From: an uncultured Gammaproteobacteria bacterium
GTDB lineage: Bacteria; Patescibacteriota; Microgenomatia; CAYXHB01; CAZYTL01
Assembly (NCBI GenBank): GCA_964650355.1
Contig: CAZYTL010000005.1
Location: 23,209 to 87,208, forward strand
Direction: 5' to 3'
Length of the DNA: 64,000 nt
The position numbers and the translations under genes are program-made. How positions within the stretch are numbered: the stretch's first letter is position 1; the number at the start of each line of letters is the position of its first letter. Under the pieces are notes generated by a model. It was given only the letters and a program-made list of their open reading frames with translations. It had not been told where the DNA came from and ran no database searches. Of the stretch, positions 2,718 through 59,401 are shown one piece after another.

Positions 2718-4679
2718 CTACTGACCACCGACCACCTTTCCCCAATCAATCGTATTCACCTTCCCATCCCCGTTCTGATCCAACAACCCATCAAACCAAC
2801 CCCCTAACACCTGCCTCAACTTTTTCCCTAATCCCATCTTTATTCCATAGATATCTACCTCCGTCAAACTATTCCACTCATTGGTATTATTTATATGCCC
2901 CAAATACCTCACGTATCTCCCTTGTATATCCGAAAAATCATATACCTCCTGCTCGAGAGTCATTCCGCTGCTTTCCCCACTCCACACCGTCTCCCAATTT
3001 ACCCTGTCACTCGAAACCTGTAAGTCAAACTTATTCATTCTACTGTCTCCTTGATATACCCCGATCCTCACCAGTCCCACCGTCCTCACTACACCTAAAT
3101 CATATTCAATCCATTGTCCGTCTCCGCTCGCTGACCAACGGGTACTCAAATCATTATCCACCGTATTTCCTGATAGGTTAGTCCCATCGTCTCCACTTGT
3201 CCTCACTCTACTAACGTCAGGCGTTATCTCCTCATACCTGGGATCAATCGTTGGTGTGGGCCGCGGAGTTACACTTGGTGCGCTGTTCATATATTCATCT
3301 GCTCCCACATCAGATCTGGCTATTCCGTCTCCGTTACCATCTTGAGGTCGTGGCTGATCATCTATATCTCTGACCGCATACCCACTACTACTGCCCTGAT
3401 CTATCGCCGGAGAGTTTACCGTTAAATGAAAATCCAGTTGTGACGGATCTTTAAACTTGACCGCATCTCTTTGGCCGTAAACTAAATTATTATAAGCATT
3501 CACATAATTACTTACCACTCCTGTCTCTAAAGTCTCGGCTATCAAATTATCATAAACCGCCCCCTGTTTTGGAGTTGAACTGACTCTGATTCCGCTCCGA
3601 GAACTTTTAACAATCGTATTATTATAAATCATTCCTCCATCTCCCAAGTCCCAGTTAATCCCCTGCGCACTTGTAGCCATCCCCGAATTGTAAAAAATAT
3701 TATTGTAAATCACATATCCTCCGATTCCTTGAATATACATCCCCGAACCTCGAGAATTATAGATTTGGTTATTATAATAATTACCAGTAGTCCCCCTATT
3801 TATGATCATTCCAAATCTCCCGTTCCCAGCTGATGGATCTGAAGACAACCCTGCATCCCTAACTATATTATGATGAATATCAACTTCACTTACCGCACTC
3901 CCCACCTGAATCCCGTCCCACCCCGTCCGATCCACCACATTATTATAAACCTTCACCCCTCTCAATACCGGATCATCAACATATTCTGTTCCGCTATTAC
4001 AACTCAAACTCCTCCCTTGGTAGAAAGAACTGCCGATATAAAACCCCTCTGTTCCCACATCATGAACATAATTATCATGAAAAATCGAATTAATCTGCGT
4101 AAAATTACTCCGATTCACCACATCATCTAAATCACCCACCTTTATCCCGTCTCCGTCGTAATCATACGCATGCCAATCGGAAGTCGATCCATCAGAACAA
4201 ACCGCCTCTGTCTTCGCTGATACGCCAATTATCGGCACCCCTGATACCTCAATGTGATCCACCTCAAAGTCACTTGTCTTGTTGGGCATCGTCATCCCGT
4301 TCGCCGTCGAGTGAATTATCTTTATCCCGTATTTGACTTGAGTATCTCCGGTCCCTGTAATCTTGATAAACTTACTGTTTTGCACCAAAATCCCTTCTGA
4401 CGTCGTCGAGTTGATCACCACTTGCCCTCCGAAATTAATAAACGTAATTGGCGTACTCGTGTCCCTCAAAAAATTTCTTAACTTCAAACTATCTCTATTC
4501 CCGGCTAAAATGCAAACTGTATCTCCTGGTTGCACACCAGCATAATTACCCCTCCCGTCTGCAATCGATACGTTCACGGGAATCGTATAATCACAGCTCA
4601 CCGCTCCGTAAACTGTCTCTGGATTCATCAACCCCCCTGCTATCACCATTATGAATAACCCGACCAGATTTCTCCTCAT
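2718..4679 (-). CDS. Secreted beta-helix family protein with C-terminal F5/8 type C (discoidin) domain and dockerin-like tail.
   Basis: 653 aa. The first 230 or so residues are nearly identical to the 275..2425 protein, including at nucleotide level. The discoidin block is SGNTVDNDLSTRWSASGDGQWIEYDLG. The tail is LGGWFDGLLDQNGDGKVNTIDWGKVVGGQ. Confidence 0.8.
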   Translation of the reverse strand: MRRNLVGLFIMVIAGGLMNPETVYGAVSCDYTIPVNVSIADGRGNYAGVQPGDTVCILAGNRDSLKLRNFLRDTSTPITFINFGGQVVINSTTSEGILVQNSKFIKITGTGDTQVKYGIKIIHSTANGMTMPNKTSDFEVDHIEVSGVPIIGVSAKTEAVCSDGSTSDWHAYDYDGDGIKVGDLDDVVNRSNFTQINSIFHDNYVHDVGTEGFYIGSSFYQGRSLSCNSGTEYVDDPVLRGVKVYNNVVDRTGWDGIQVGSAVSEVDIHHNIVRDAGLSSDPSAGNGRFGMIINRGTTGNYYNNQIYNSRGSGMYIQGIGGYVIYNNIFYNSGMATSAQGINWDLGDGGMIYNNTIVKSSRSGIRVSSTPKQGAVYDNLIAETLETGVVSNYVNAYNNLVYGQRDAVKFKDPSQLDFHLTVNSPAIDQGSSSGYAVRDIDDQPRPQDGNGDGIARSDVGADEYMNSAPSVTPRPTPTIDPRYEEITPDVSRVRTSGDDGTNLSGNTVDNDLSTRWSASGDGQWIEYDLGVVRTVGLVRIGVYQGDSRMNKFDLQVSSDRVNWETVWSGESSGMTLEQEVYDFSDIQGRYVRYLGHINNTNEWNSLTEVDIYGIKMGLGKKLRQVLGGWFDGLLDQNGDGKVNTIDWGKVVGGQ

Positions 4680-12381: not shown

Positions 12382-12777
12382 ATGAAAACCGATCCATTAA
12401 ACGCTTTGATATCAAATGATGCAAGAGCCACAGATAGGCAGAAACTCGCGGACCTTCTCACCCCTTATGTAGTAATAGATCAAAAATCACAAGAGTTCGG
12501 CTTTAAAGAAGCCTTCGAGGAGCTAGACAACGACACCAAAATTGAAATCTTTCTTGCAAGTATAAAGGCTCGTGCATTATTATTTGGCGTTACTGACGGG
12601 TCACGTCCTACAGAACTGATTTCCCTTGGAATTATGCCAGAGGGCAGCGTAAAGACCAGCCTCAAGCGCTTATTTGAAAACCGAAAAATAAAGAAAGGGA
12701 ATGACGGTAACTATTTTCTCCCTGCTTACCGTATCCTCGAACTATCTAAACGTCTTGTTACTAAACAACCAAAATAA
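12382..12777 (+). CDS. Hypothetical protein. First gene of a 4-gene foreign cassette. Possible winged-helix C-terminus.
   Basis: 131 aa. Tightly packed with the next gene (stop 12777, next start 12781). Composition is balanced in G and C, unlike its neighbours. Confidence 0.55.
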   Translation: MKTDPLNALISNDARATDRQKLADLLTPYVVIDQKSQEFGFKEAFEELDNDTKIEIFLASIKARALLFGVTDGSRPTELISLGIMPEGSVKTSLKRLFENRKIKKGNDGNYFLPAYRILELSKRLVTKQPK

Positions 12778-12780
12778 ATT

Positions 12781-13173
12781 ATGGATTCAAAACGAATTGA
12801 CGAACTTGAAAAAAGAGTGGAGAAGCTTGAACGGCTCCTACTCACTCCAGATCCAAAACCAACTAAGACCAAAAAAATGTCCCCGAAGGAATTTCTGCTC
12901 ACTAAAAGCGTAAAGTTTAGCATGCAGAAGGTCCTTGTACTCGGATATTACCTCGAACACATGGAAGGAATAGAATCATTCAATGTAATGGATCTTGAAT
13001 CAATATTCCGGGCTGCGAAGGAAAAACTACCTAAAAATATAAATGATATGGTTAACAAAAACGTCGCCCGCGGACTTATTGACGAAGCCAAGAGCCAAAA
13101 AGACTCTAAAAAAGCATGGTATCTAACCTCTACAGGAGAGAACTTGGTAGAAAATGAATTAAATCTAAACTAA
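12781..13173 (+). CDS. Hypothetical protein. Cassette gene 2. Coiled-coil N-terminus and possible winged-helix C-terminus (KAWYLTSTGENLV).
   Basis: 130 aa, with IDELEKRVEKLERLL. Confidence 0.55.
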   Translation: MDSKRIDELEKRVEKLERLLLTPDPKPTKTKKMSPKEFLLTKSVKFSMQKVLVLGYYLEHMEGIESFNVMDLESIFRAAKEKLPKNINDMVNKNVARGLIDEAKSQKDSKKAWYLTSTGENLVENELNLN

Positions 13174-13177
13174 CAAT

Positions 13178-13720
13178 ATGTCAAATAATTCATCGGTAGA
13201 ATTAACGGGAAAAATAGTAGAATTACTTTCGCCCTTAGAATCAGAAGAAAGACTGCGAATCATCGACGCCTCATTAATATTGCTTGGCGAGAAGCCAGCT
13301 GGGGCTGGAAAAAGCAAATATCTCCCTGATAGAGATGATGTTGCTATACTTCCGCAACGCGCACGCTTATGGATAGAGCAAAATAAAATCAAAGTGGAGC
13401 AAATTCAGCAAATATTCCAATTGGGCGATGCCGCTTTTGAAGTCATTGCATCACCCATTCCAGGGAAATCTACAAAGGATCAAACTTTAAATACTTATAT
13501 ACTCACTGGGATTGGTAATCTTCTCATAACAGGAGAGCCTTCCTTCCCGGATAATCAGGCACGTTCGTTGTGTAAAAATTCTGGTTGCTATGACAGTGCG
13601 AATCATTCTGCATATCTAAAAAATAGAGGGAATGTATTCACTGGTAACAAAAAGACCGGTTGGTCACTTACCGGTCCAGGACTTAAACTCGGCGCTGAAC
13701 TTATAAAGGAATTAAACTAA
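13178..13720 (+). CDS. Hypothetical protein. Cassette gene 3.
   Basis: 180 aa. No motif recognised. Confidence 0.5.
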   Translation: MSNNSSVELTGKIVELLSPLESEERLRIIDASLILLGEKPAGAGKSKYLPDRDDVAILPQRARLWIEQNKIKVEQIQQIFQLGDAAFEVIASPIPGKSTKDQTLNTYILTGIGNLLITGEPSFPDNQARSLCKNSGCYDSANHSAYLKNRGNVFTGNKKTGWSLTGPGLKLGAELIKELN

Positions 13721-13723
13721 TAC

Positions 13724-14506
13724 ATGCCTGACCCTAACAAAATATTAATCAACATACCAAGGGGTTTGCGTGAACCACTATTAGAGAGCTATCAAGAAAT
13801 CTCTCGGAATTACACCGAACATCGCTGGGAACCTTCAGAATTAAATGGGGGGAAATTCTCAGAAGCAGTCTATTCGATTATTGATGGAAGTATCAACGGT
13901 TCATTCGCTATAAAACCTTCGAAACCGAAAAATATGGTTAAAGCATGTCGCGATCTTGAAAATCTTCCTGCTAATCCAAACCGTGTTGGTGACAGAAGTC
14001 TACGCATCCTCATTCCACGTTTATTAATAAGTCTCTACGAAATACGGAGTAACAGAAACGTGGGGCATCTAGGTGGTGATGTTGATCCAAATTTTATGGA
14101 TGCTACGGCCGTTTTTAGTATAGCGAACTGGGTACTAGCAGAACTTATACGTATTTTCCATTCAATTTCAACAACAGAAGCTCGAGTAATTGTCAACGGG
14201 ATTGTGGAACGTAAACATCCACTCATTTGGGATGTTGGGAGTGTCAGACGAGTCTTAGACCCCAAGATGAGTAAAAAAGACCAAGCATTATTCCTTTTAT
14301 ATTCCAAGCCTGGATGGGTTACTGAAAAGGATCTTTTTCAATGGGTTGAATACAGCAATTCAAGTATATTTCGTAAATACATACTCATCCCATTACACAA
14401 TATCCGGTTGGTTGAGTATGACCAGTCTCAGGGCCAAGTGCGCATCTCTCCACTTGGTAGCGAATATATAGAGGATAGAATTTTAAAAACACGCACCCAA
14501 TCATGA
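13724..14506 (+). CDS. Hypothetical protein. Cassette gene 4. Possible HEPN-like R-x(4-6)-H motif (RSNRNVGH).
   Basis: 260 aa. The start is 4 nt after the stop of gene 3. Confidence 0.5.
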   Translation: MPDPNKILINIPRGLREPLLESYQEISRNYTEHRWEPSELNGGKFSEAVYSIIDGSINGSFAIKPSKPKNMVKACRDLENLPANPNRVGDRSLRILIPRLLISLYEIRSNRNVGHLGGDVDPNFMDATAVFSIANWVLAELIRIFHSISTTEARVIVNGIVERKHPLIWDVGSVRRVLDPKMSKKDQALFLLYSKPGWVTEKDLFQWVEYSNSSIFRKYILIPLHNIRLVEYDQSQGQVRISPLGSEYIEDRILKTRTQS

Positions 14507-40009: not shown

Positions 40010-41458
40010 CTACTGTTTTACCACTCTTACCCAATCCCAACAATTCACCTTCCCGTCTCCATTCTGATCTCCGATGGCGCTAAACCAATTGACCAACCAC
40101 GACTTCAAATTAGTCAGGTCTAAAGAAATTTTTTCAATCCGGATTTTGTCAAGTTTGGTGTTCATTTCCCGTCCTTGAAAGCGGAGAGTGTAGACCGGCC
40201 CGTTTGTGAGAGTAAAGATTCGGGGATCAGTTTTAGGCGAATCAAAAGTACCGCTGCCCCGGTAGCTGACCTGATTCCAAACCCAAGAAGTGGGAGGTTG
40301 AGTATCAATGGTTTGGTAGAGGATATCCCAGATGTCAGCAGTAGTAGGAGAGGTTTGGTTGATGGTAACGTAGAAGGAGTTATCGTTACCGGCAGTAGGC
40401 CAGACTCTGCCTGAGACTAAGTAGTCACCAGATTGGGCAACTCTGAATTGGAAGGCGGCGTTTCCATTATCTGCTTGGGAAGAATAGATATATTGACCTC
40501 CGGAAGCCGTGGAGTCAGAGTTGATAGTCATGGAAGATAGTTGCATAGACTCGGCCTCCGATTCATAGGCAGTTTGGATCAGAGCCGGAGTAGGTGTCGG
40601 GCCGGTCGTTGGGGAAGGCGTAGGAGTAGATGTGGGACCTCCCGGACAGGGAGGTCCTCCTTGATCAGGATTCACTTCTGCACAACTGGTACCTCTCCGA
40701 TACTCATCGTGATAGATAATCTCTGTATCACTATAAATGTCTTTGTTTCTATAAATCCCCATCTTCAAATAAGGCCCAGTATTATAATCGTAATCGTAGC
40801 CTACTGGCCCACCGTAATCTAAAACAGGATCCGGATTGCCATCCATCCAAACCCTCACATAATGGTTTCCTGATAGTCGGTAATCAAAACGAGTATTAAA
40901 AATAAAATCATGCCATACTCCCTGTGTTGCTTTTCCAATCCATTTATCCTGATTAGATCCTTCTGTAGATCTGATGCCAATATAAAAATCGCCCCCATAA
41001 ATGTACTGCAAGCTTAAAATCGGGCTATCTCCTCCGGTAGCCGCATGCCATTGGGCTATTATATTAAATCTGTAAGAACCATTTGGCTGATACCTAGGGT
41101 CAATATATACTGAAAACCCCTGCCAAACGTCTGTTGAATAAGGGATTTTGTCTTGATCATTAGCTCCATTTAACATAATTTCGGAGCGTTCATTTCCTCC
41201 CATGGGGTTTGGTGTGGGTATGTTTCCATCTCGCACTATGTTTCGCACCGCATATTTGCCGCTTCTTACCGGACTGGTTACCACCTGCGTCGAATCGGTA
41301 CAACAATGGCCACCATCTCGCCACCCGCTTAAATCCCCACTCTCAAAATCCAACACCTTGTGTTGAATATATTGAGCTCTTGCTGGGAACACAGCCACAA
41401 ATCCCATTACCCAGCATGCAACCACCAATCCAGCAATTCGCCACCATTTCCTGTCCAT
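40010..41458 (-). CDS. Secreted concanavalin-like putative polysaccharide lyase (PF14099-like jelly roll) with CBM6/35-like module and dockerin-like tail.
   Basis: 482 aa. The lyase block is ERSEIML...QWHAATGGDSPILSLQY. The CBM block is AYESEAESMQLSSMTINSDSTASGGQYIY..FQFRVAQSGDYLVSG..DNSFYVTI. The tail is LKSWLVNWFSAIGDQNGDGKVNCWDWVRVVKQ. Confidence 0.7.
   Translation of the reverse strand: MDRKWWRIAGLVVACWVMGFVAVFPARAQYIQHKVLDFESGDLSGWRDGGHCCTDSTQVVTSPVRSGKYAVRNIVRDGNIPTPNPMGGNERSEIMLNGANDQDKIPYSTDVWQGFSVYIDPRYQPNGSYRFNIIAQWHAATGGDSPILSLQYIYGGDFYIGIRSTEGSNQDKWIGKATQGVWHDFIFNTRFDYRLSGNHYVRVWMDGNPDPVLDYGGPVGYDYDYNTGPYLKMGIYRNKDIYSDTEIIYHDEYRRGTSCAEVNPDQGGPPCPGGPTSTPTPSPTTGPTPTPALIQTAYESEAESMQLSSMTINSDSTASGGQYIYSSQADNGNAAFQFRVAQSGDYLVSGRVWPTAGNDNSFYVTINQTSPTTADIWDILYQTIDTQPPTSWVWNQVSYRGSGTFDSPKTDPRIFTLTNGPVYTLRFQGREMNTKLDKIRIEKISLDLTNLKSWLVNWFSAIGDQNGDGKVNCWDWVRVVKQ
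40150..40640. repeat. Left arm of a roughly 480 bp inverted duplication. It encodes the CBM6/35-like module of 40010 and is G-rich on the plus strand, against the local skew.
   Basis: The reverse complement of 40270-40320 is cctctaccaaaccattgatactcaacctcccacttcttgggtttggaatcag. The matching 43420-43470 reads ctctatcaaaccattgacacccaacctcccacttcttgggtttgggatcag. Confidence 0.65.
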
Positions 41459-43842: not shown

Positions 43843-44652
43843 ATGACGACTTCCGGTCTTTTCCTCATCAACAAGCCACCTGCCTCGCCGAACGCAAGTC
43901 AAGGCAGGCCCGGACCCACCAGCCATGATATCGTCAATATCGCCAGGAAAAAACTCGGCATTAAAACCATCGGCCATACCGGCACCCTTGATCCTTTCGC
44001 TACCGGATTACTGATACTTTTGGTAGGAAAAGCAGCCACCAAACAGCAATCACGTTTCCTCAAACTCGACAAACAATACCTGGCCACCGCCCTCTTCGGC
44101 TACACCAGCGACACCTACGACATTACCGGTTCTATCCACAAATCTGACTCCGAATTTCAAAATCTTAATCCTAAAACTCTTGAATCTAAAATCTTAAATC
44201 TTAAATCTAATTTCACCGGTACCATTCTCCAAACCGTTCCTCCCTTCTCCGCAGTCAAACGTCATGGTCAAAAACTCTACCATCTGGCCAGAAAAGGCCA
44301 AATTAATCTCTCTGACCTCCCTCAACGCCGAGTCACCATTCACAAGTTCACCATCACCAATCAGTCCCCACCCCCAAACCATTTCATCAACAAAGTTATT
44401 AAAACCAACAATTTGACAATTCAACAATTTAACAATCTAACTACTAATTTCCTAATAGAATGTTCCACCGGCACCTACATCCGCTCCCTCATCCACGACC
44501 TTGGCCAAGAAATCGGAATCGGCGCCCTGGTTGCAGCTCTCCACCGCACCCACATCGGTCCCTATACTATCTCCCAAGCTATTCCCCCCGACCAAATAGA
44601 CCCCGAACATATCCGACCGTTGACATTTCCCTCTCAACTCACCAAACTATAA
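43843..44652 (+). CDS. truB: tRNA pseudouridine(55) synthase TruB.
   Basis: [23 protein letters not shown] matches the TruB catalytic-Asp motif. The NKP..TSHD N-terminal motif is also present. Confidence 0.85.
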   Translation: [269 protein letters not shown]

Positions 44653-48322: not shown

Positions 48323-50100
48323 CTACCAGTCTCTTAACTGAGCCAGAAATCAAACACCCTTCTCCTCTGCATTTTTTTATCATCAAGGACCACAATGACA
48401 TAATGTTAGAAATTAAATAAAAATCTTCATTTCCAATTCTTCTGTAACTCCTACCTCCATCCCGACAGCCAAGTGTCACTCCTAAAATGATCAACCGCGG
48501 ATCAATATCCATCCGCATAAGACCAGTCCTATTGAATGACTGAATTCCCCGTTGTGCCCTCCTGCTCCTAACATCACCCAATTTCAGGAGCGATTTATCC
48601 AAATTCCGAAGCTCCATTAATTAGGGGTACAACTATTCGCTAACCCCGACACTTCTGACGCAGAAAGAGCACGGTTATACACTCTAATTTCATCAAGATC
48701 CCCTGTAATATCAGCACCATCACTAACCCCCCTACAATCCATTCCAACTCCCACATAACAAATATGTCCAATCGGTGGTCCAGTGGCTCGGCTAACAACG
48801 CTCACCCCGTTAACATACAACCTAGCCATACCGTCTGTATCGGAATAAGTTAAAGCCACGTGACTCCATTGGCCAACTGGTAAAGGATTAGAGGCATTAA
48901 GGTAATCATAACCTCCTCCTCGGTGAATTAAGCCTTGAGGACGATTTTGACTGTCAAGATTTATAATGAATGTACTCCGGCCATCAATAACTAGGTTATA
49001 AGAACCGCTTTGCGTTCTCGGCCTAACCCAAGCCGCAATCGTAAAATCTGTCACATCAAAATCGCCCCCATCAGTACCAGAGGGACTGATAAAAGTTCTA
49101 TTCCTACCGTCGATACTAAGAGCTTGCCCCCCACACCCACCGTTGATCCATGTATCTCCAGTCGGATCCAAGAGAGAAGTATGATAATTATATCCCGACA
49201 TATCAAATACATTACTATCTGATTCGTTATCGAACGAATAATATAGAATCAGCCCTGGTTCAGGTGAGGGTTCTGGTGTGACCATAGTTGTCGGTGTCGG
49301 GGTAGGTGTCGACGTCGGAGGGACAGGTTCTATACACAATCCGGTATCAGGATCGCACACCTCCGGATCAGTACATCCACTAACTACACAACTCGATACA
49401 CACGTTCCCGTATCCGGATCACATACCCCATACCCGTCACATACACTCGGATCTGTAGTACAATCATACCCCCCACATAGATAAGTCGGATTGTCCCCAC
49501 TCGGCTCACATTGCCCCCCACTTCCACACGCCGCAGATGACCAACACTCTAATGTACATGGATTCCCCGGATCTTTCGCCTGACATGCATATTCCCCTAC
49601 CCCTCCATACGGATTACATACCTCACATTGCCCACACGCACTCGGATCATCAGGATCACATGGCGTCAGACTCCCAGGCGGTGTCGTCGGTCCCGGCCCA
49701 GGCGGTACCGTCACCTCCGGTGGCGGTGTCGGTGTTGGTCCTCCTCCTGTACCAAACCCTTCAAATATCTCTATCCCCAAAAAATATTGCACCAAAATCG
49801 CTATCGCATACGATAACGCCAACACCGCAAACCCTATCAAACACTGCGTCAACCTCTCCCTCGCCTTCTGTAAATTAGATTGATCATCTCCACTCGTTAA
49901 CCACTGAAACCCTCCCCACAACAAACATAAAAATACCACCACTCCCCCTGCTATCAACACCATCCCCAATACCTTCGACAGAAATGTCGGTATCGATATC
50001 ACCCCACTAAATAGATTCCCCACCTCCTGTAAGTGCCCCAACAATTGCGTCACTGGCTGCATGCTAACCTTAGTATCTCATTCGCCTTTTTACCCTGTCA
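48190..50100. repeat. Tandem duplication unit 1: galT 3' end, spacer, surface-protein gene, promoter.
   Basis: 48190-48322 recurs at 50128-50280. 49500-50100 recurs near-identically at 51430-52036. Confidence 0.7.
48617..50062 (-). CDS. Membrane-anchored Cys-rich surface protein with N-terminal two-TM hairpin (TrbC/VirB2-like topology), PT linker, CxxC-rich region and C-terminal LamG-like domain.
   Basis: 481 aa. TM1 is VLGMVLIAGGVVVFLCLLWGGFQWL. The loop is TSGDDQSNLQKARERL. TM2 is CLIGFAVLALSYAIAILVQYFL. There are many CGQCEVC/CTLEC motifs. The LamG block is FTIAAWVRP...LYVNGV. Confidence 0.65.
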   Translation of the reverse strand: MQPVTQLLGHLQEVGNLFSGVISIPTFLSKVLGMVLIAGGVVVFLCLLWGGFQWLTSGDDQSNLQKARERLTQCLIGFAVLALSYAIAILVQYFLGIEIFEGFGTGGGPTPTPPPEVTVPPGPGPTTPPGSLTPCDPDDPSACGQCEVCNPYGGVGEYACQAKDPGNPCTLECWSSAACGSGGQCEPSGDNPTYLCGGYDCTTDPSVCDGYGVCDPDTGTCVSSCVVSGCTDPEVCDPDTGLCIEPVPPTSTPTPTPTTMVTPEPSPEPGLILYYSFDNESDSNVFDMSGYNYHTSLLDPTGDTWINGGCGGQALSIDGRNRTFISPSGTDGGDFDVTDFTIAAWVRPRTQSGSYNLVIDGRSTFIINLDSQNRPQGLIHRGGGYDYLNASNPLPVGQWSHVALTYSDTDGMARLYVNGVSVVSRATGPPIGHICYVGVGMDCRGVSDGADITGDLDEIRVYNRALSASEVSGLANSCTPN

Positions 50101-50388: not shown

Positions 50389-51984
50389 TTAGAATAAGTG
50401 AAAGTTATACACTGTATCCCCGCTCACATTCATATAATTAAAGTCACGGTATATATTCGGGCCATCCCTCAACAATGACCAAACTACATATCTTCCGTTA
50501 GGCAAGCCATTAATTCGATAGTTGCCGCTTGCATCAACCCTACCTGAACGAATCGCTCCGGTATCAACATTATAAATATAAATAGGAGTATTCGCTTGAG
50601 AAATCGGAATCCCTCCTGTCCCCGGATATCGATTAATTCCGCTCAAACTTCCGGTTCCTACACTCGGAGGAGTTAAAGTTGACAAATCAATATCTCTGAC
50701 AAATGGTACCCAGAAATTAATTATATTAGGCACGGTATCACTGGAATCCATAGTCCCGTGACCAAAAGTCAAAACACTGCCTTGTCTCCTCAGAATAGTT
50801 ATCAAATAACTATTTGGCGCATACTGCAATGGATAAAGACTATTCAACTGCAAGTCGCCTTGACTATTGGTTGTGAACGGACACCAAGAAATAGGAATGC
50901 TCGGATCCAGACTATAACTGAACAAATATCCTGGTTCGCTAGCATAAGCCGTACCATACAATAATAAATTAACATTTATATAAGTAGACGAACCCGTTAA
51001 CCCAGTAGCACAAGCATACTGCCCTGCTGGTGGTGTTGGAGTAGGAGGTATAGGAGTATTCGTCGGAGCAATGTATTCACATCTACAATTAGTCCATTCT
51101 TTCGCTCGGTTTTGACATCTCGGCGCTCCCGTAGAACTGTGCATCACCCTTCCGCATCCTATCCCACTCGTCTCCGTACAACTCGCGTCACTCCCTAAAT
51201 ACGCCCTGTTATTAGTCGCCAACCTATCAGTCCCTACATCCGTGCATTCCCGCCCCGCCCCAGAGCACAACTGGTTACAACTCTGATTAGTCGCAATATT
51301 AGGTATCGACGGATCTATACAATGACCCGTCTCAGGATCGCATACCCCGTACGGCTCACATATACTCGGATCTGTCGTACAATCTCTCTGCATACACTCC
51401 TCCCGGTATTCACCACCTTCCGCCGGTTCGCATTGCCCCCCACTCCCACACGCCGCAGCTGACCAACACTCTAAAGTACAAGGATTCCCCGGATCTTTAG
51501 CCTGACATGCATATTCCCCTACTCCACCATACGGATTACATACCTCACATTGCCCACATGCACTCGGATCACTCGGATCACATGGCGTCAGACTCCCTGG
51601 CGGTGTCGTCGGTCCCGGCCCCGGCGGTACCGTCACCACCGGTGGCGGTGTCGGTGTTGGCCCTCCACCACTTCCAAACCCTTCAAATATCTCTATCCCC
51701 AAAAAATATTGCACCAAAATCGCTATCGCATACGATAACGCCAACACCGCAAACCCTATCAAACACTGCGTCAACCTCTCCCTCGCCTTCTGTAAATTAG
51801 ACTGATCATCCCCGCTCGTCAACCACTGAAACCCTCCCCACAACAAACATAAAAATACCACTACTCCCCCGGCTATCAGCACCAAACCCAACAACCTCGA
51901 CAAAAACGTCGGTATCGATATCACCCCACTAAATAGATTCCCCACCTCCTGTAAGTGCCCTAATAATTGCGTCACCGGCTGCAT
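50389..51984 (-). CDS. Paralog of 48617..50062 with an identical N-terminal 230 aa (two-TM anchor plus Cys-rich region) but a different C-terminal half: a second Cys-rich block, PT linker, and a carboxypeptidase-regulatory-like beta-sandwich.
   Basis: 531 aa. The C-terminal block is RSGRVDASGNYRINGLPNGRYVVW. The N-terminal 5' half is near-identical to copy 1 at nucleotide level. Confidence 0.65.
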   Translation of the reverse strand: MQPVTQLLGHLQEVGNLFSGVISIPTFLSRLLGLVLIAGGVVVFLCLLWGGFQWLTSGDDQSNLQKARERLTQCLIGFAVLALSYAIAILVQYFLGIEIFEGFGSGGGPTPTPPPVVTVPPGPGPTTPPGSLTPCDPSDPSACGQCEVCNPYGGVGEYACQAKDPGNPCTLECWSAAACGSGGQCEPAEGGEYREECMQRDCTTDPSICEPYGVCDPETGHCIDPSIPNIATNQSCNQLCSGAGRECTDVGTDRLATNNRAYLGSDASCTETSGIGCGRVMHSSTGAPRCQNRAKEWTNCRCEYIAPTNTPIPPTPTPPAGQYACATGLTGSSTYINVNLLLYGTAYASEPGYLFSYSLDPSIPISWCPFTTNSQGDLQLNSLYPLQYAPNSYLITILRRQGSVLTFGHGTMDSSDTVPNIINFWVPFVRDIDLSTLTPPSVGTGSLSGINRYPGTGGIPISQANTPIYIYNVDTGAIRSGRVDASGNYRINGLPNGRYVVWSLLRDGPNIYRDFNYMNVSGDTVYNFHLF

Positions 51985-53677: not shown

Positions 53678-54898
53678 ATGAACGTTCTAATGTTCGGTTG
53701 GGAATTGCCCCCCCACCACAGTGGAGGACTGGGCACAGCTTGTTATGGCTTAACCCACAGCCTTTGCCAACATGGAGTCAACATCAATTTCATCCTTCCT
53801 CGCAAACTTCCTCATCACATCTCGTTCATGCATGTCTATTCCGATCACATTTCTTCCGCCGATCTCTCCGTCACCGCCCTTAACTCCCTTCTTAAATCCT
53901 ATTCCACCACTGTCGATTATCAAACCCTTCTTTCCCAACTCACTCCCGAAGAGTTACAAGCCCACGTCTTTGGCCGCAACCTCATCGATGAAGCTCTCCG
54001 TTATGGTCGTCAGGCGGCCAAATGGGCCCGTCATCTTCCTCATGACCTCATCCATTCCCACGACTGGATGACTTATCCCGCCGGTATCCAGGCAGCTAAG
54101 ACCTCCGGCAAACCCTTTGTCGCCCACGTGCACGCCACCGAATTCGACCGCTGCGCCGGCGACCACGTCAACCACCAAGTCGCCGACATCGAATACCAGG
54201 GTTTAACAAGAGCCGATCGGGTCATCACGGTTAGTAAGTACACCAAAAACATCATAGTTAATAAATATGCCGTCAATCCCCACAAAGTTACGGTTGTTCA
54301 TAATGGCATCGAACCCCACGAATTCCCTCCCACCCATCTACCCACCCTCCTCCCTGGATATCAAGTTGTCCTCTTTGTCGGTCGACTCACCATCCAAAAA
54401 GGAGCTGACTACCTCCTCAAAGCCGCCCCCAAAGTGCTCCTCCATCGCCCTCGCACCATTTTCCTCATCACCGGTGACGGTGATCTCAAACGCCAACTCA
54501 TTATGGAAGCTGCTGGGCTGGGCGTTTCCCATCGCGTCCTCTTTACCGGCTTCATCCGTGACCGCCACCAACTTGCCTCTATTTACCAAGCGGCTGACGT
54601 CTTTGTCATGCCCTCGGTTTCCGAACCTTTCGGCATAGTCCCCTTGGAAGCCATGGCCAACCACAAACCAGTCATCATCTCCAAACAATCCGGCGTATCA
54701 GAAATAGTTAACCATAGTCTCAAGGTTGACTTCTGGGACGTAGACCGTTTAGCTGATCTCATCATCTCCGTTCTCAACTATCCTGCTTTGCAGGAGGAAA
54801 TGGCTTTCCAGGGAAACCGTGAACTCCAACACATTACCTGGGATAACGCTGCCCGCAAAACCCTGGCCGTCTATCAACAAGTCCTCAACCATTCTTAA
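53678..54898 (+). CDS. GT4-family glycosyltransferase (glycogen-synthase-like, GT-B fold).
   Basis: The N-terminus is GWELPPHHSGGLGTACYGL. It has FVGRLTIQKGADYL and the E-x7-E motif EPFGIVPLEAMANHKPVI. Confidence 0.65.
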   Translation: MNVLMFGWELPPHHSGGLGTACYGLTHSLCQHGVNINFILPRKLPHHISFMHVYSDHISSADLSVTALNSLLKSYSTTVDYQTLLSQLTPEELQAHVFGRNLIDEALRYGRQAAKWARHLPHDLIHSHDWMTYPAGIQAAKTSGKPFVAHVHATEFDRCAGDHVNHQVADIEYQGLTRADRVITVSKYTKNIIVNKYAVNPHKVTVVHNGIEPHEFPPTHLPTLLPGYQVVLFVGRLTIQKGADYLLKAAPKVLLHRPRTIFLITGDGDLKRQLIMEAAGLGVSHRVLFTGFIRDRHQLASIYQAADVFVMPSVSEPFGIVPLEAMANHKPVIISKQSGVSEIVNHSLKVDFWDVDRLADLIISVLNYPALQEEMAFQGNRELQHITWDNAARKTLAVYQQVLNHS

Positions 54899-54911
54899 AC
54901 CCCATAGTATC

Positions 54912-54939
54912 TTGACAAACAACTAATCCCCTGTATAAT
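54912..54939 (+). promoter_or_regulatory. Near-consensus sigma70 promoter: TTGACA, 16 bp, TGtTATAAT (extended -10).
   Basis: cTTGACAaacaactaatcccctgTATAATtg, read directly. It lies 215 nt upstream of the small ORF ATG. Confidence 0.6.
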
Positions 54940-54945
54940 TGAAAC

Positions 54946-55156
54946 CGTTGAAAACCTCCCCACACCGCGTGGAGAAGGGTTTTCTTCTCGCACCTTTATA
55001 AAGGTCAAAAGATGCTACCAGGTGTGCATTCTTGTGCCTCACCTGCAGCTCTAGCGGAACGGAAAGAGAATAAATACTCCTGATTCTTTTCCCCATCCGC
55101 TAGAGCACTCGCGCTCATGGCGGAAATAATGCTTACGCAGAAAGGAGGTGAAATCC
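54946..55156 (+). other. Roughly 210-nt GC-rich structured leader or possible cis-regulatory RNA with two clear hairpins (55019-55045 caggtg/cacctg, and 55048-55106 with an 11-bp stem gctctagcgga/tccgctagagc). It ends in the strong SD aaaggaggtg.
   Basis: Perfect inverted repeats are visible in the sequence. No tmRNA, RNase P or SRP hallmark motifs were found. Confidence 0.4.
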
Positions 55157-55498
55157 ATGCTGCGCAAGCGAAATCTGCTTTGGGCGGCCTTGGCCGCCAT
55201 CGTCGTCATCGGCTTGCTGGCGCCCCTCTGGGCACCCGCAACGCACACCGCAGAAGCCGCGGGACCCTGTTATTTTGCCAATAGGCAGAGGGTCTGCCCC
55301 ACCAGTTTACGCACTGAAAACTATGATTACCTCATGGGATTGGATGATACCGGACAAATCATCCAATCCTGGCGTGCTTCGCCTAACGGGCGCACCCAAA
55401 CGGACGCATATGATGCCAGAATCACCAGCTTTGCTGTCTTCGGCAAAGCCAACGGCATCAGCCAAGCAAGCTCGCCCAACTGGGGAGGCACGAGGTAG
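55157..55498 (+). CDS. Small secreted protein of about 113 aa with signal peptide and two Cys, in a GC-rich insert with foreign composition and a canonical SD.
   Basis: ATG at 55157, preceded by AGGAGG with a 7-nt spacing. The ORF track starts at the upstream GTG 55148. The signal peptide is MLRKRNLLWAALAAIVVIGLLAPLWAPATHTAEA. The GC content is well above the rest of the window. Confidence 0.5.
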   Translation: MLRKRNLLWAALAAIVVIGLLAPLWAPATHTAEAAGPCYFANRQRVCPTSLRTENYDYLMGLDDTGQIIQSWRASPNGRTQTDAYDARITSFAVFGKANGISQASSPNWGGTR

Positions 55499-55815
55499 CA
55501 CCCCGTTCCACCATGGGACACCCTGGGCTCCGGCTTTCTAGGGGGGCCCTTTTTCATGCTCATAAGTTCCCCTCCCTCAACTCCTTCTTCCATCTCCATT
55601 CCAAACCCGCTAAACTAAAGGCAGTGCATTAAGAATCACGAATCAAGAATCTCCTATAAGGGGAATAAACCATTATATCCGCAAATTCCTTATTCTTATC
55701 GTGTTCAGAAACTAATAACTATTAAATTAACTATTAATTGGTTACTTTCCAATCTTGATGTGAAACTTGTCCCAAAGGGACCCCTTCGGGGAAACTAATA
55801 CCTGATACTATCCTT

Positions 55816-57057
55816 ATGGCCGCCGTCGTCCTCTATTTCCACGTCCACCAACCATTTCGCGTCAAACCCTACTCCATCTTCCAGGCAGGTCATGACCATC
55901 AATACTTCAACGCCAATAGCGGATCCCGACTCGATAACCAAAAAATCCTTCGCAAAGTCGCAGACAAATGTTACCTTCCTGCCACCAAAATCCTCCGTGA
56001 CCTGATTTCCCGCTATCCCGATTTCAAAGTTTCATTTTCCATTTCCGGTCCTATCATTGAACAACTCAGACAATTCGCCCCTGAAGTTCTCCACTCCTTT
56101 CAGGATCTGGTGGCCACCGGCAACGTGGAACTTCTCGCCGAAACCTACCACCATAGCCTCTCCTTTCTCTATTCCCAACCAGAATTTCACCGCCAAATCC
56201 AACTCCAACATCAAAACATTCAGGATACCTTTGGCTACACCCCCACCGCCTTCCGTAATACCGAACTCATTTACAATAACGCCCTTGCCGCTGAAGTCGA
56301 AAAACTCGGTTATCAGGTAATTCTGGCCGAAGGCATTGACTCCGTACTTGGTTGGCGCAACCCCAATTTCGTCTACCGACCCGCTACCACCCAAAAATTG
56401 AAACTCTTACTCAAAAACTATCGTTTATCCGACGATATCGCCTTTAGGTTCTCCGAACGCTCATGGAACGAATGGCCCCTTACCGCCGAAAAATTCGCCA
56501 ACTGGGTCTCCCAGGTAAACGGCAACGGCCACGTAGTCAATCTCTTCATGGATTTTGAAACTTTAGGAGAACATCAATGGGCCGACTCAGGCATCTTCGA
56601 TTTTCTCCACCAACTTCCCTACGAAATCTACCGTCATCCTGATAACCAATTCATGACCGTCACTCAAGCCGCCCAAACCTTTCCGGTCATGGATACCATC
56701 GACATGCACCACCTCACTTCCTGGGCAGACACCGAACGCGACCTCTCAGCTTGGCTCTCCAACCCCATGCAGCACTCCGCCATCCAAACTCTTTACGACC
56801 TGGAAGAACTCATTCTCAATACCGACGATCCCGAGTTAATTTCCGACTGGCGCCACCTCCAATCCAGTGACCACTTCTATTATATGTGCACCAAATGGTT
56901 CAATGACGGCGACGTCCATAAATACTTCAACCCCTACGAGACTCCTTATGATGCCTTTATCAATTACATGAATGTTCTCCACGATCTCAGGCATCGGGCC
57001 GAATCCCACCCCCGCAACACCACCAAACACAAGTTGACAACCAAGAGCCAAAAGTGA
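55816..57057 (+). CDS. GH57-family alpha-glucan-active enzyme.
   Basis: The N-terminal HQP motif (LYFHVHQPFR) is recalled from GH57. There is an acidic FMDFETLGEH region. It sits in an alpha-glucan gene neighbourhood. Confidence 0.6.
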   Translation: MAAVVLYFHVHQPFRVKPYSIFQAGHDHQYFNANSGSRLDNQKILRKVADKCYLPATKILRDLISRYPDFKVSFSISGPIIEQLRQFAPEVLHSFQDLVATGNVELLAETYHHSLSFLYSQPEFHRQIQLQHQNIQDTFGYTPTAFRNTELIYNNALAAEVEKLGYQVILAEGIDSVLGWRNPNFVYRPATTQKLKLLLKNYRLSDDIAFRFSERSWNEWPLTAEKFANWVSQVNGNGHVVNLFMDFETLGEHQWADSGIFDFLHQLPYEIYRHPDNQFMTVTQAAQTFPVMDTIDMHHLTSWADTERDLSAWLSNPMQHSAIQTLYDLEELILNTDDPELISDWRHLQSSDHFYYMCTKWFNDGDVHKYFNPYETPYDAFINYMNVLHDLRHRAESHPRNTTKHKLTTKSQK

Positions 57058-58999: not shown

Positions 59000-59401
59000 A
59001 TGGATACTTACGCTAGTATTGAAAATCTACAAAAACTTAAGGTCTATCAATTAAGCAGAAAATTGTCCAAATTAGTTTGGGATATAGTTTCTAAATGGAA
59101 ATACGTTGCCCAAAAGACAATTGGTATTCAATGGATCGAATCAACTGACTCAATTTCATCAAATATTGCAGAAGGTTATGGAAGATACCATTTTAATGAA
59201 AGCATAAATTTCTATTATTTTTCTCGAGGTTCTTTATTTGAATCTCATGACTGGTTTAAAAAAGCTCAGGAAAGAAGATTGTTAACAGGAGAACAAATTA
59301 AGCAATATTTAGACATTTTTGAAAAAATCCCTATTGAACTGAATGTGTTAATTAAGCGAACCAAAACAAGTGCGAAAGAATACAAAAAGTTGAATAAATA
59401 A
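59000..59401 (+). CDS. Four-helix-bundle protein of the 23S-rRNA-intervening-sequence family.
   Basis: 133 aa. The motifs are LKVYQLSRKL...SNIAEGYGRY...SRGSLFE. It is flanked by AATAAAT-rich repeats, consistent with an insertion into the rml cluster. Confidence 0.6.
   Translation: MDTYASIENLQKLKVYQLSRKLSKLVWDIVSKWKYVAQKTIGIQWIESTDSISSNIAEGYGRYHFNESINFYYFSRGSLFESHDWFKKAQERRLLTGEQIKQYLDIFEKIPIELNVLIKRTKTSAKEYKKLNK

Follow-up and report, generated by a model that had tools for sequence, protein, structure and literature searches.

A compositionally foreign gene unit, probably acquired recently, between two genes of a Patescibacteria glycogen-type operon

Introduction

Acquisitions of single orphan genes are common in bacteria. 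Among described systems, the closest to the locus presented here are phage morons and single-gene ORFan units, in which one open reading frame (ORF) lies between its own promoter and an intrinsic terminator, the composition is unlike that of the neighbors, and the unit is placed between genes that are adjacent in relatives; their products are often small exported proteins of unknown function. A unit resembling them in these respects was found in a stretch of 64,000 nucleotides (nt) of assembly GCA_964650355.1 (contig CAZYTL010000005.1, positions 23,209 to 87,208), which is called the window below and to which all coordinates refer. It comprises a GC-rich segment of about 585 bp at positions 54968-55553, containing an ORF for a 113-amino-acid (aa) protein, and lies between a glycosyltransferase (GT) gene and a GH57 gene. 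Unlike morons, it is inserted in a chromosomal sugar-metabolism operon and not in a prophage, no donor and no mobility signature were found for it, its promoter is seemingly host-type DNA, and its leader is very long and structured.

Parts of the unit also resemble two other kinds of systems. In leaders that sequester the Shine-Dalgarno (SD) sequence, such as RNA thermometers and the expression platforms of riboswitches, the upstream RNA is highly structured, and at the present locus too the upstream RNA is predicted to be highly structured, with a hairpin that surrounds the AUG and engages part of the SD. Unlike such leaders, it showed no family match, no conserved aptamer and no terminator element, and only half of the SD is paired. 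Sec-dependent bacteriocins of the lactococcin 972 and enterocin P types are small proteins with an N-terminal loop capable of forming a disulfide, encoded by single genes, and the predicted product of the present ORF is similar to them in these traits. It differs in that no family match was obtained and no immunity or transporter gene lies alongside, and its predicted mature part of about 79 aa is longer than that of most of them.

A pronounced disparity of G and C between the two DNA strands has been described as a lineage property in the Microgenomates order UBA1400, where C and G make up 29.8% and 15.0% of the Ch65 genome (PMC7143001). The window is like the genomes of Ch65, Ca. Collierbacteria and Ca. 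Beckwithbacteria in its excess of C on one strand; the cited study treats the genome-wide bias and not islands that escape it (PMC7143001).

Results

A Segment of Foreign Composition Interrupts a Conserved Gene Pair

On the + strand of the window C is about twice as frequent as G (GC skew about -0.32, GC content about 0.45), whatever the orientation of the genes, and where gene orientation flips, at about 41.5 kb, the skew is unchanged. In a relative (L085) the same operon has a skew of +0.28, and therefore the bias goes with the strand and not with the genes; being bound to the strand, it must cause the amino-acid make-up of orthologues to differ strongly by strand. The host is a Patescibacteria (Candidate Phyla Radiation, CPR) genome with disparity of the UBA1400 type, a match made by composition and not by phylogeny. 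As this disparity is a property of the lineage, un-skewed DNA marks DNA that has not yet been reshaped by the host. The segment of interest and its surroundings are:

53678-54898, + strand: upstream host gene for a GT4/GT5 glycosyltransferase (glycogen/starch-synthase-like), 406 aa; Pfam Glycos_transf_1 1.7e-36, Glyco_transf_5 1.5e-17
54968-55553, + strand: compositionally foreign segment, about 585 bp, delimited by change points in the cumulative sum (CUSUM) of G minus C, good to about +/-30 nt
55554-55815, + strand: host-like, AT-rich, G-poor spacer of 262 nt, recognized by composition
55816-57057, + strand: downstream host gene for a GH57 alpha-amylase-family enzyme, 413 aa; Pfam Glyco_hydro_57 3e-73

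The CUSUM turned near 54968-55000, with its minimum near 54975-55000, and again near 55550, with its maximum near 55500-55550. Between 54968 and 55552 the GC content is 0.557, compared with a window mean of 0.451 (sd 0.040), which is within the top 0.13% of all 585-nt windows, and the GC skew is -0.067, compared with a mean of -0.322 (top 4%). Both values together are reached by 0.01% of the 585-nt windows, that is, at this place alone. Codons ending in G make up 26 of the 113 codons of the ORF (23%), compared with about 10% in the host genes of that strand (P=4e-5), and the upstream glycosyltransferase gene is of host type in composition (skew -0.30, G3 0.10). A preliminary description of this DNA, made from its letters alone, had called the composition of the region unlike that of its host, and this is borne out by GC content, skew and G-ending codons, all of which deviate. 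The segment also interrupts the conserved GT-GH57 pair.

The gap between the GT and GH57 genes is 917 bp in the window. Across 78 related loci that carry the two genes on the same strand, its median is 20.5 bp; it is at most 150 bp in 68 of them and exceeds 300 bp in 6. These larger gaps, from six other lineages, were considered as instances of a shared insertion and rejected, as they hold unrelated genes (e.g., for an SDR dehydrogenase) and are not GC-rich. In the closest syntenic relatives the gap ranges from 14 to 242 bp and the insert is absent at that position. It measures 14 bp in L083 and L084, which share with the window the downstream order of GH57, a 197-aa protein, a nucleoside triphosphate (NTP)-transferase, a protein of the 23S-rRNA-intervening-sequence-protein family and the rml genes. 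No relative of the 113-aa protein is encoded in any related locus examined. An exact look-up of the full-length flanking proteins found none on record, so that no strain-level empty site was available.

The 242-bp GT-GH57 spacer of L085 (positions 2767-3010 of that locus) was observed to contain a nested long inverted repeat with outer arms of about 19 bp (CTCGTCTTCCTGAGGCAAG / CTTGCCTCAGGAAGACG) and inner arms of 13 bp. Its sequence is unrelated to that of the insert in the window; it possibly represents a hairpin element that occupies the same junction.

Signals for Expression and Export of a 113-aa Protein

The unit is complete in that promoter, SD, ORF with signal peptide and terminator follow each other on the same strand:

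54912-54939, + strand: sigma70-type consensus promoter, TTGACA (54912-54917), 16-nt spacer, TATAAT (54934-54939), 12/12 matches
55143-55148, + strand: SD sequence AGGAGG, 8 nt 5' of the ATG at 55157, read from the sequence
55157-55498, + strand: ORF for an orphan protein of 113 aa, stop included in the coordinates, supported by period-3 signal and G-ending codons
55157-55258, + strand: predicted Sec signal peptide, residues 1-34, from sequence inspection and hydropathy (heuristic)
55532-55555, + strand: intrinsic-terminator-like hairpin, 34 nt past the stop codon, with 4 G-C pairs among its 7 and CTTTTTC directly behind it

The promoter is the only site with at least 11 of 12 matches on both strands of the 64 kb, in agreement with the preliminary description, which had also read an extended -10 element of the form TGnTATAAT; that element is not present, as TG abuts TATAAT directly (cTGTATAAT) and the spacer base is missing. 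The same description had placed the promoter inside the GC-rich foreign insert. Direct counting in the 69 nt that bear it (54899-54967) gave 6 G and 24 C, a host-like, G-poor composition with which the CUSUM agrees. Since these 69 nt are G-poor and the compositional boundary lies near 54968, the promoter is probably host DNA and not part of the imported piece, which seems to start about 30 nt downstream of the -10 element. A leaderless mini-ORF (TTG at 54948, 17 codons) was considered as the target of this promoter and dropped, having no AUG and no support. Elsewhere in the window, two paralogous genes on the - strand that encode N-termini like those of type IV secretion system (T4SS) pilins (48617-50062 and 50389-51984) have an identical promoter, consisting of TTGACA, 18 nt and TGaGATACT, 9 nt before the ATG, from which it follows that the host does use TTGACA -35 boxes.

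The host's own genes appear to be leaderless and without SD sites. TAGAGT (mostly as TGgTAGAGT) stands exactly 6 nt 5' of the ATG at 17 of 41 gene starts, and TANNNT is found 5-10 nt 5' of the start in 24 of the 41 genes, compared with 10% at random positions. Examples of this leaderless-type set are the starts at 2425, 4679, 6650, 11743, 16622 ... 41458 on the - strand and at 43843 and 55816 on the + strand. An SD core within -18 to -5 was detected at only two of the 41 starts, namely at the ORF described here and, as a bare AGGA, at 13724. A literature search found no description of leaderless genes in this group, one paper mentioning leaderless mRNA only in relation to YchF. The full AGGAGG occurs at a single gene start, that at 55157. 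An earlier statement that this is the only AGGAGG SD in the window therefore stands for gene starts and not for the word as such, which is not rare and occurs at chance frequency (43 copies, 42.6 expected).

The ideal spacing of the SD, a period-3 signal in the composition of the ORF (chi-square p=0.010) and a textbook signal peptide argue that 55157-55498 is a real gene. The predicted signal peptide consists of an n-region MLRKRN, a hydrophobic core of 19 residues (L7-W25) and a likely cleavage motif A32-E33-A34 followed by A35. Hydropathy peaks at 2.82 for residues 7-21, and AlphaFold2 places a helix at residues 4-25. Judged heuristically, the positively charged n-region, the hydrophobic core of 10-20 residues and the small residues at -3 and -1 (AXA) expected of a Sec-exported protein are thus all present. 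The mature protein would have about 79 aa, would be mildly basic and would contain two cysteines, Cys38 and Cys47. Of the "small secreted Cys protein" of the preliminary description, the small size, the SD and, heuristically, the Sec-type signal peptide hold, and the emphasis on cysteine was overstated with only two of them in the mature part. In the host-like spacer downstream of the terminator, a -10-like element (TGaTACTAT / GATACT) lies a few bases 5' of the GH57 ATG, and therefore the GH57 gene need not depend on read-through.

The Leader RNA Is Predicted to Be Strongly Structured

Transcription would start near 54946, about 7 nt past the promoter. The folded elements predicted in the resulting RNA, including two in the ORF, are:

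54946-55156, + strand: putative 5' untranslated leader, about 210 nt, strongly structured, its start placed from the -10 element
55019-55045, + strand: leader hairpin CAGGTG (55019-55024) / CACCTG (55040-55045) with an inner 4-bp stem, from sequence and fold
55048-55106, + strand: long leader hairpin with an 11-bp perfect outer stem (55048-55058 / 55096-55106) and an inner 8-bp stem
55116-55182, + strand: interrupted hairpin of about 67 nt round the translation start, predicted by a partition-function fold of 54946-55216
55337-55369, + strand: perfect 12-bp hairpin with a 9-nt loop in the ORF, from an inverted-repeat search
55428-55449, + strand: 9-bp hairpin with a UCUU loop in the ORF, from the minimum free energy (MFE) fold and the sequence

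The "210-nt two-hairpin leader" announced earlier was recovered as far as its hairpins are concerned, the CAGGTG/CACCTG pairing and the 11-bp perfect stem with its 37-nt loop both being verified in the sequence; its length depends on the start of transcription assumed near 54946. The loop within the outer stem of the long hairpin carries CUCCU, and the hairpin extends to arms of 24 nt that are 83% complementary, with a loop of 11 nt. The leader has an MFE of -79.1 kcal/mol (z -4.8), and none of 200 shuffled sequences folds as well; in sliding windows z is about -5.4 and the centroid structure is close to the MFE structure. There is no period-3 signal in the leader (p=0.79). In the hairpin predicted round the translation start, the GGA of the SD pairs with UCC just 5' of the AUG (p ~0.99) and the AUG is left unpaired. 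Another feature, at about +46 of the presumed transcript (54991-55005), is a perfect palindrome of 14 nt, ACCTTTATAAAGGT, which could be an operator-like protein site or merely a small hairpin.

In the preliminary description the leader was discussed as a possible riboswitch or attenuator. That it is a ligand- or signal-sensing RNA governing the small ORF, be it a new riboswitch, an RNA thermometer or an attenuator dependent on an upstream ORF (uORF), would be consistent with a fold far better than that of shuffled sequences, with the predicted multi-hairpin junction, with the half-sequestered SD, with a 23-codon uORF (55012-55083) that ends within the loop of the long hairpin, and with the complementarity of ACCUCC (54953-54958) and of the loop CUCCU to the SD. 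We nevertheless consider it unlikely. A scan of the whole window with the covariance models of Rfam 15 gave no match at gathering score, and matches at E<=10 within 54800-55900 were noise alone (E 3-9, from miRNA and snoRNA models aligned to the hairpin). Neither leader hairpin has a U-run behind it, the sequences there being ACTCGCG and GCAGCTC, and the sole terminator-like site is that at 55532-55555 past the ORF, so that no terminator/antiterminator pair and no classical terminator-attenuator is present. Chance alone would produce complements of 5-6 nt to the SD in 210 nt at 5-20% (rough estimate), the uORF is preceded only by a weak AAGG, and as no homologues were found there is no covariation to draw on. 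Moreover, folding exceeds expectation in the coding part to about the same degree as in the leader, and such an excess therefore does not single out a regulatory domain.

Searches for Relatives of the Protein and of the Insert

For the 113-aa protein no homologue was found in about 15 billion proteins. A word-indexed search of 5.8 billion clusters retrieved the query itself only, and an exhaustive search with HMMER across 1.84 billion representatives retrieved the query together with low-complexity and repeat matches. The latter were RTX-like repeat proteins, which matched the signal-peptide region, and a dockerin-repeat protein (P0005), which was rejected: it reached E=7e-4 only through five repeated stretches, with no Pfam match; the loop aligned to it, S-P-N-G-R-T, is devoid of the acidic Ca ligands of a dockerin domain. 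Pfam gave no family at E<=1, NCBIfam none at E<=10 and a sequence search of the PDB none, and the sole match in PHROGs had E=0.19; accordingly, none of these four collections connects the protein to a secreted-peptide or bacteriocin family, as had been proposed at first. A single-sequence AlphaFold2 model (pLDDT 57.6) and its Foldseek comparison with the PDB, which yielded nothing below E=0.3, were both discarded. Two antisense ORFs searched against Pfam, NCBIfam, PHROGs and the PDB gave nothing usable.

At the nucleotide level, the insert matched no plasmid or phage by blastn, and protein-guided scans of viral and metagenome contigs revealed no relative. A search with the pattern of the hairpin stem found nothing in metagenomes and one viral contig (L086), in which only the 11-bp stem is common and which was judged coincidental. 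Within the window there is no second copy of the insert, and no transposase, integrase or phage gene lies nearby. None of the terminal repeats, attC sites, transposases or integrases that characterize insertion sequences (IS), miniature inverted-repeat transposable elements (MITEs) and integron cassettes was detected.

Neighboring Genes and Other Regions of the Window

The genes of the neighborhood encode an alpha-amylase, the GT4/GT5 glycosyltransferase, GH57, a DUF5752-like protein and an NTP-transferase, followed by dTDP-sugar genes; no immunity, processing or transport gene is adjacent to the insert. The best relatives of the GH57 protein belong to metagenome-assembled genomes of Patescibacteria, with identities of at most 65% (genomes) and at most 73% (metagenome proteins). 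Farther upstream, TruB, GAPDH, starch synthase and the pilin-like surface proteins are encoded, as well as a long beta-helix/CBM9 array. This array, on the - strand at 275-41458, comprises about 20 large paralogous genes for secreted-type beta-helix proteins, the C-termini of which carry CBM9, laminin-G, F5/8-type-C or Golvesin domains. Most of the array genes have near-identical promoter-start regions (gtgat..TGGTAGAGTgaannATG), with TTACGTG-like repeats farther upstream. A scan for tRNA and tmRNA genes found none.

Three other places depart from the strand bias. At 12382-14506 four small ORFs (131, 130, 180 and 260 aa) on the + strand stand within the - strand array; they show no Pfam match, a GC content of about 0.40 and a skew of about 0, and this second island escaping the strand bias is a candidate for another acquisition. 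A polysaccharide-lyase gene on the - strand (40010-41458) has a skew of +0.07 on its own strand, compared with about +0.3 in its neighbors, and may have been acquired recently too. The gene of the 23S-rRNA-intervening-sequence-protein family (59000-59401, + strand) has a GC content of 0.29 and reversed skew; it is not a recent arrival, because L083 and L084 have a counterpart at the same place.

Discussion

The data presented here are probably best explained by the recent acquisition of a self-contained gene unit, through illegitimate recombination between the GT and GH57 genes of a glycogen-type operon of a Patescibacteria bacterium. In this respect the proposal of a horizontally acquired secreted-peptide gene made in the preliminary description is supported, as a segment of foreign composition, an interrupted conserved gene pair, an SD-led ORF of Sec type and a terminator of its own coincide. 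As is usual for genomic islands, the segment departs from the host in composition and in codon use, and relatives lack an insert at this site; an identifiable donor was not found. According to this explanation, transcription would probably start about 7 nt past 54912-54939 at a captured or locally evolved host promoter, would pass through the hairpin-rich leader of about 210 nt and would terminate at the hairpin with its T-run (55532-55555). The ORF would be translated through SD pairing (AGGAGG-8-AUG), unlike the host's apparently leaderless genes, and its product would be exported by the Sec system and cut after Ala34, releasing a mildly basic protein of about 79 aa, with one possible disulfide between Cys38 and Cys47, outside a cell of monoderm type. 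The leader and the start-codon hairpin most likely tune mRNA stability or the initiation of translation rather than sense a ligand.

Several observations weigh against this explanation. No donor or homologue was found in protein clusters, plasmids, phages, or viral and metagenome contigs, and transfer is deduced from composition and synteny only. Around 54968-55553 there are no terminal inverted repeats, no target duplication, no integrase and no tRNA. SD-dependent translation in the host is an assumption, the 16S rRNA gene lying outside the window, and the expression of the unit is read from its sequence signals. In addition, the ORF is more folded than expected for an ordinary mRNA (z -3.3 overall and -5.1 for 55280-55499). 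The perfect 12-bp hairpin at 55337-55369, of which by a rough estimate about 4e-4 would be expected to arise by chance in 600 nt, adds to both values, and constraints of base pairing could contribute to the balance of G and C in the insert.

These last points lead to a second alternative, a native host element in which the balance of G and C is kept by RNA pairing, either a noncoding RNA of about 600 nt with a fortuitous ORF or the structured mRNA of an old gene. On a strand with a 2:1 excess of C over G, a pairing RNA needs about as much G as C, and folding z values are strongly negative across 54895-55554, compared with -1.5 to +1.5 (one window at -3.0) in the flanking host DNA; the perfect 12-bp and 9-bp hairpins within the ORF and the promoter in host-like DNA would also fit. 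The alternative is improbable, as it does not account for the ideal distance between an AGGAGG and the first ATG in the longest ORF (about 0.15% by chance, rough estimate), for the textbook Sec signal peptide that directly follows, or for a period-3 signal that is present in the ORF and absent from the leader. Pairing alone does not need an enrichment of G at third codon positions, the closest syntenic relatives are empty at this site with gaps of 14-242 bp, and no Rfam family matched, the large ornate RNAs included.

We also give little credence to a related and more far-reaching idea, according to which a new class of structured RNA makes up the unit of about 600 nt or forms part of it, as a sensing leader or as a wholly folded mRNA that controls its own translation like hok-type mRNAs. 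On this view a CPR episymbiont would have imported the unit along with a secreted effector, its own bacterial host being a possible source.

Derivation from a mobile element or phage, such as a hairpin element of the IS200/IS605 or MITE-like type, an integron cassette, a phage moron or a type I toxin-antitoxin system, has a still smaller chance of being correct. It is suggested by the richness in hairpins, by the compact, autonomous and moron-like arrangement of promoter, one ORF and terminator, and by a possible pairing between the 5' and 3' parts (55021-55043 / 55482-55504, 74% over 23 nt) that recalls hok-type mRNAs. Yet the insert has neither terminal inverted repeats nor a target duplication, occurs as a single copy in the window and has no transposase, integrase or phage gene in its vicinity; the best PHROGs match is just E=0.19, phage, plasmid and viral collections yielded nothing, the lone viral match to the hairpin stem has nothing else in common with it, and the product is not a short hydrophobic toxin.

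Finally, a chimera in which DNA of another, contaminating organism was joined into the host contig by the assembler, as considered in the preliminary description and suggested by the metagenomic source and by composition and expression signals of a different kind of bacterium, is very unlikely because a separately assembled Logan contig of 2743 bp (SRR14802573_76880), the one public contig that encodes the exact 113-aa protein, is 100% identical to 54307-57049 of the window and spans both junctions, because two false joins 585 bp apart, with the host sequence exactly re-established at a conserved gene junction, would have been needed, and because the longest word common to the insert and the rest of the window, 15 nt, leaves no longer repeat to mislead an assembler.

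As an acquisition, then, the insert is of a fairly ordinary kind, and it fits none of the RNA or protein families searched. If the unit was indeed acquired recently, it would represent a dated acquisition in a CPR genome, in which the strand bias serves as a clock that shows new DNA at the resolution of a single gene. An SD-led gene with a long leader among apparently leaderless genes would provide a test of whether the host translates canonical mRNAs. The organism is thought to live attached to other cells, and the small exported protein would be a candidate effector that could act in cell-cell interaction.

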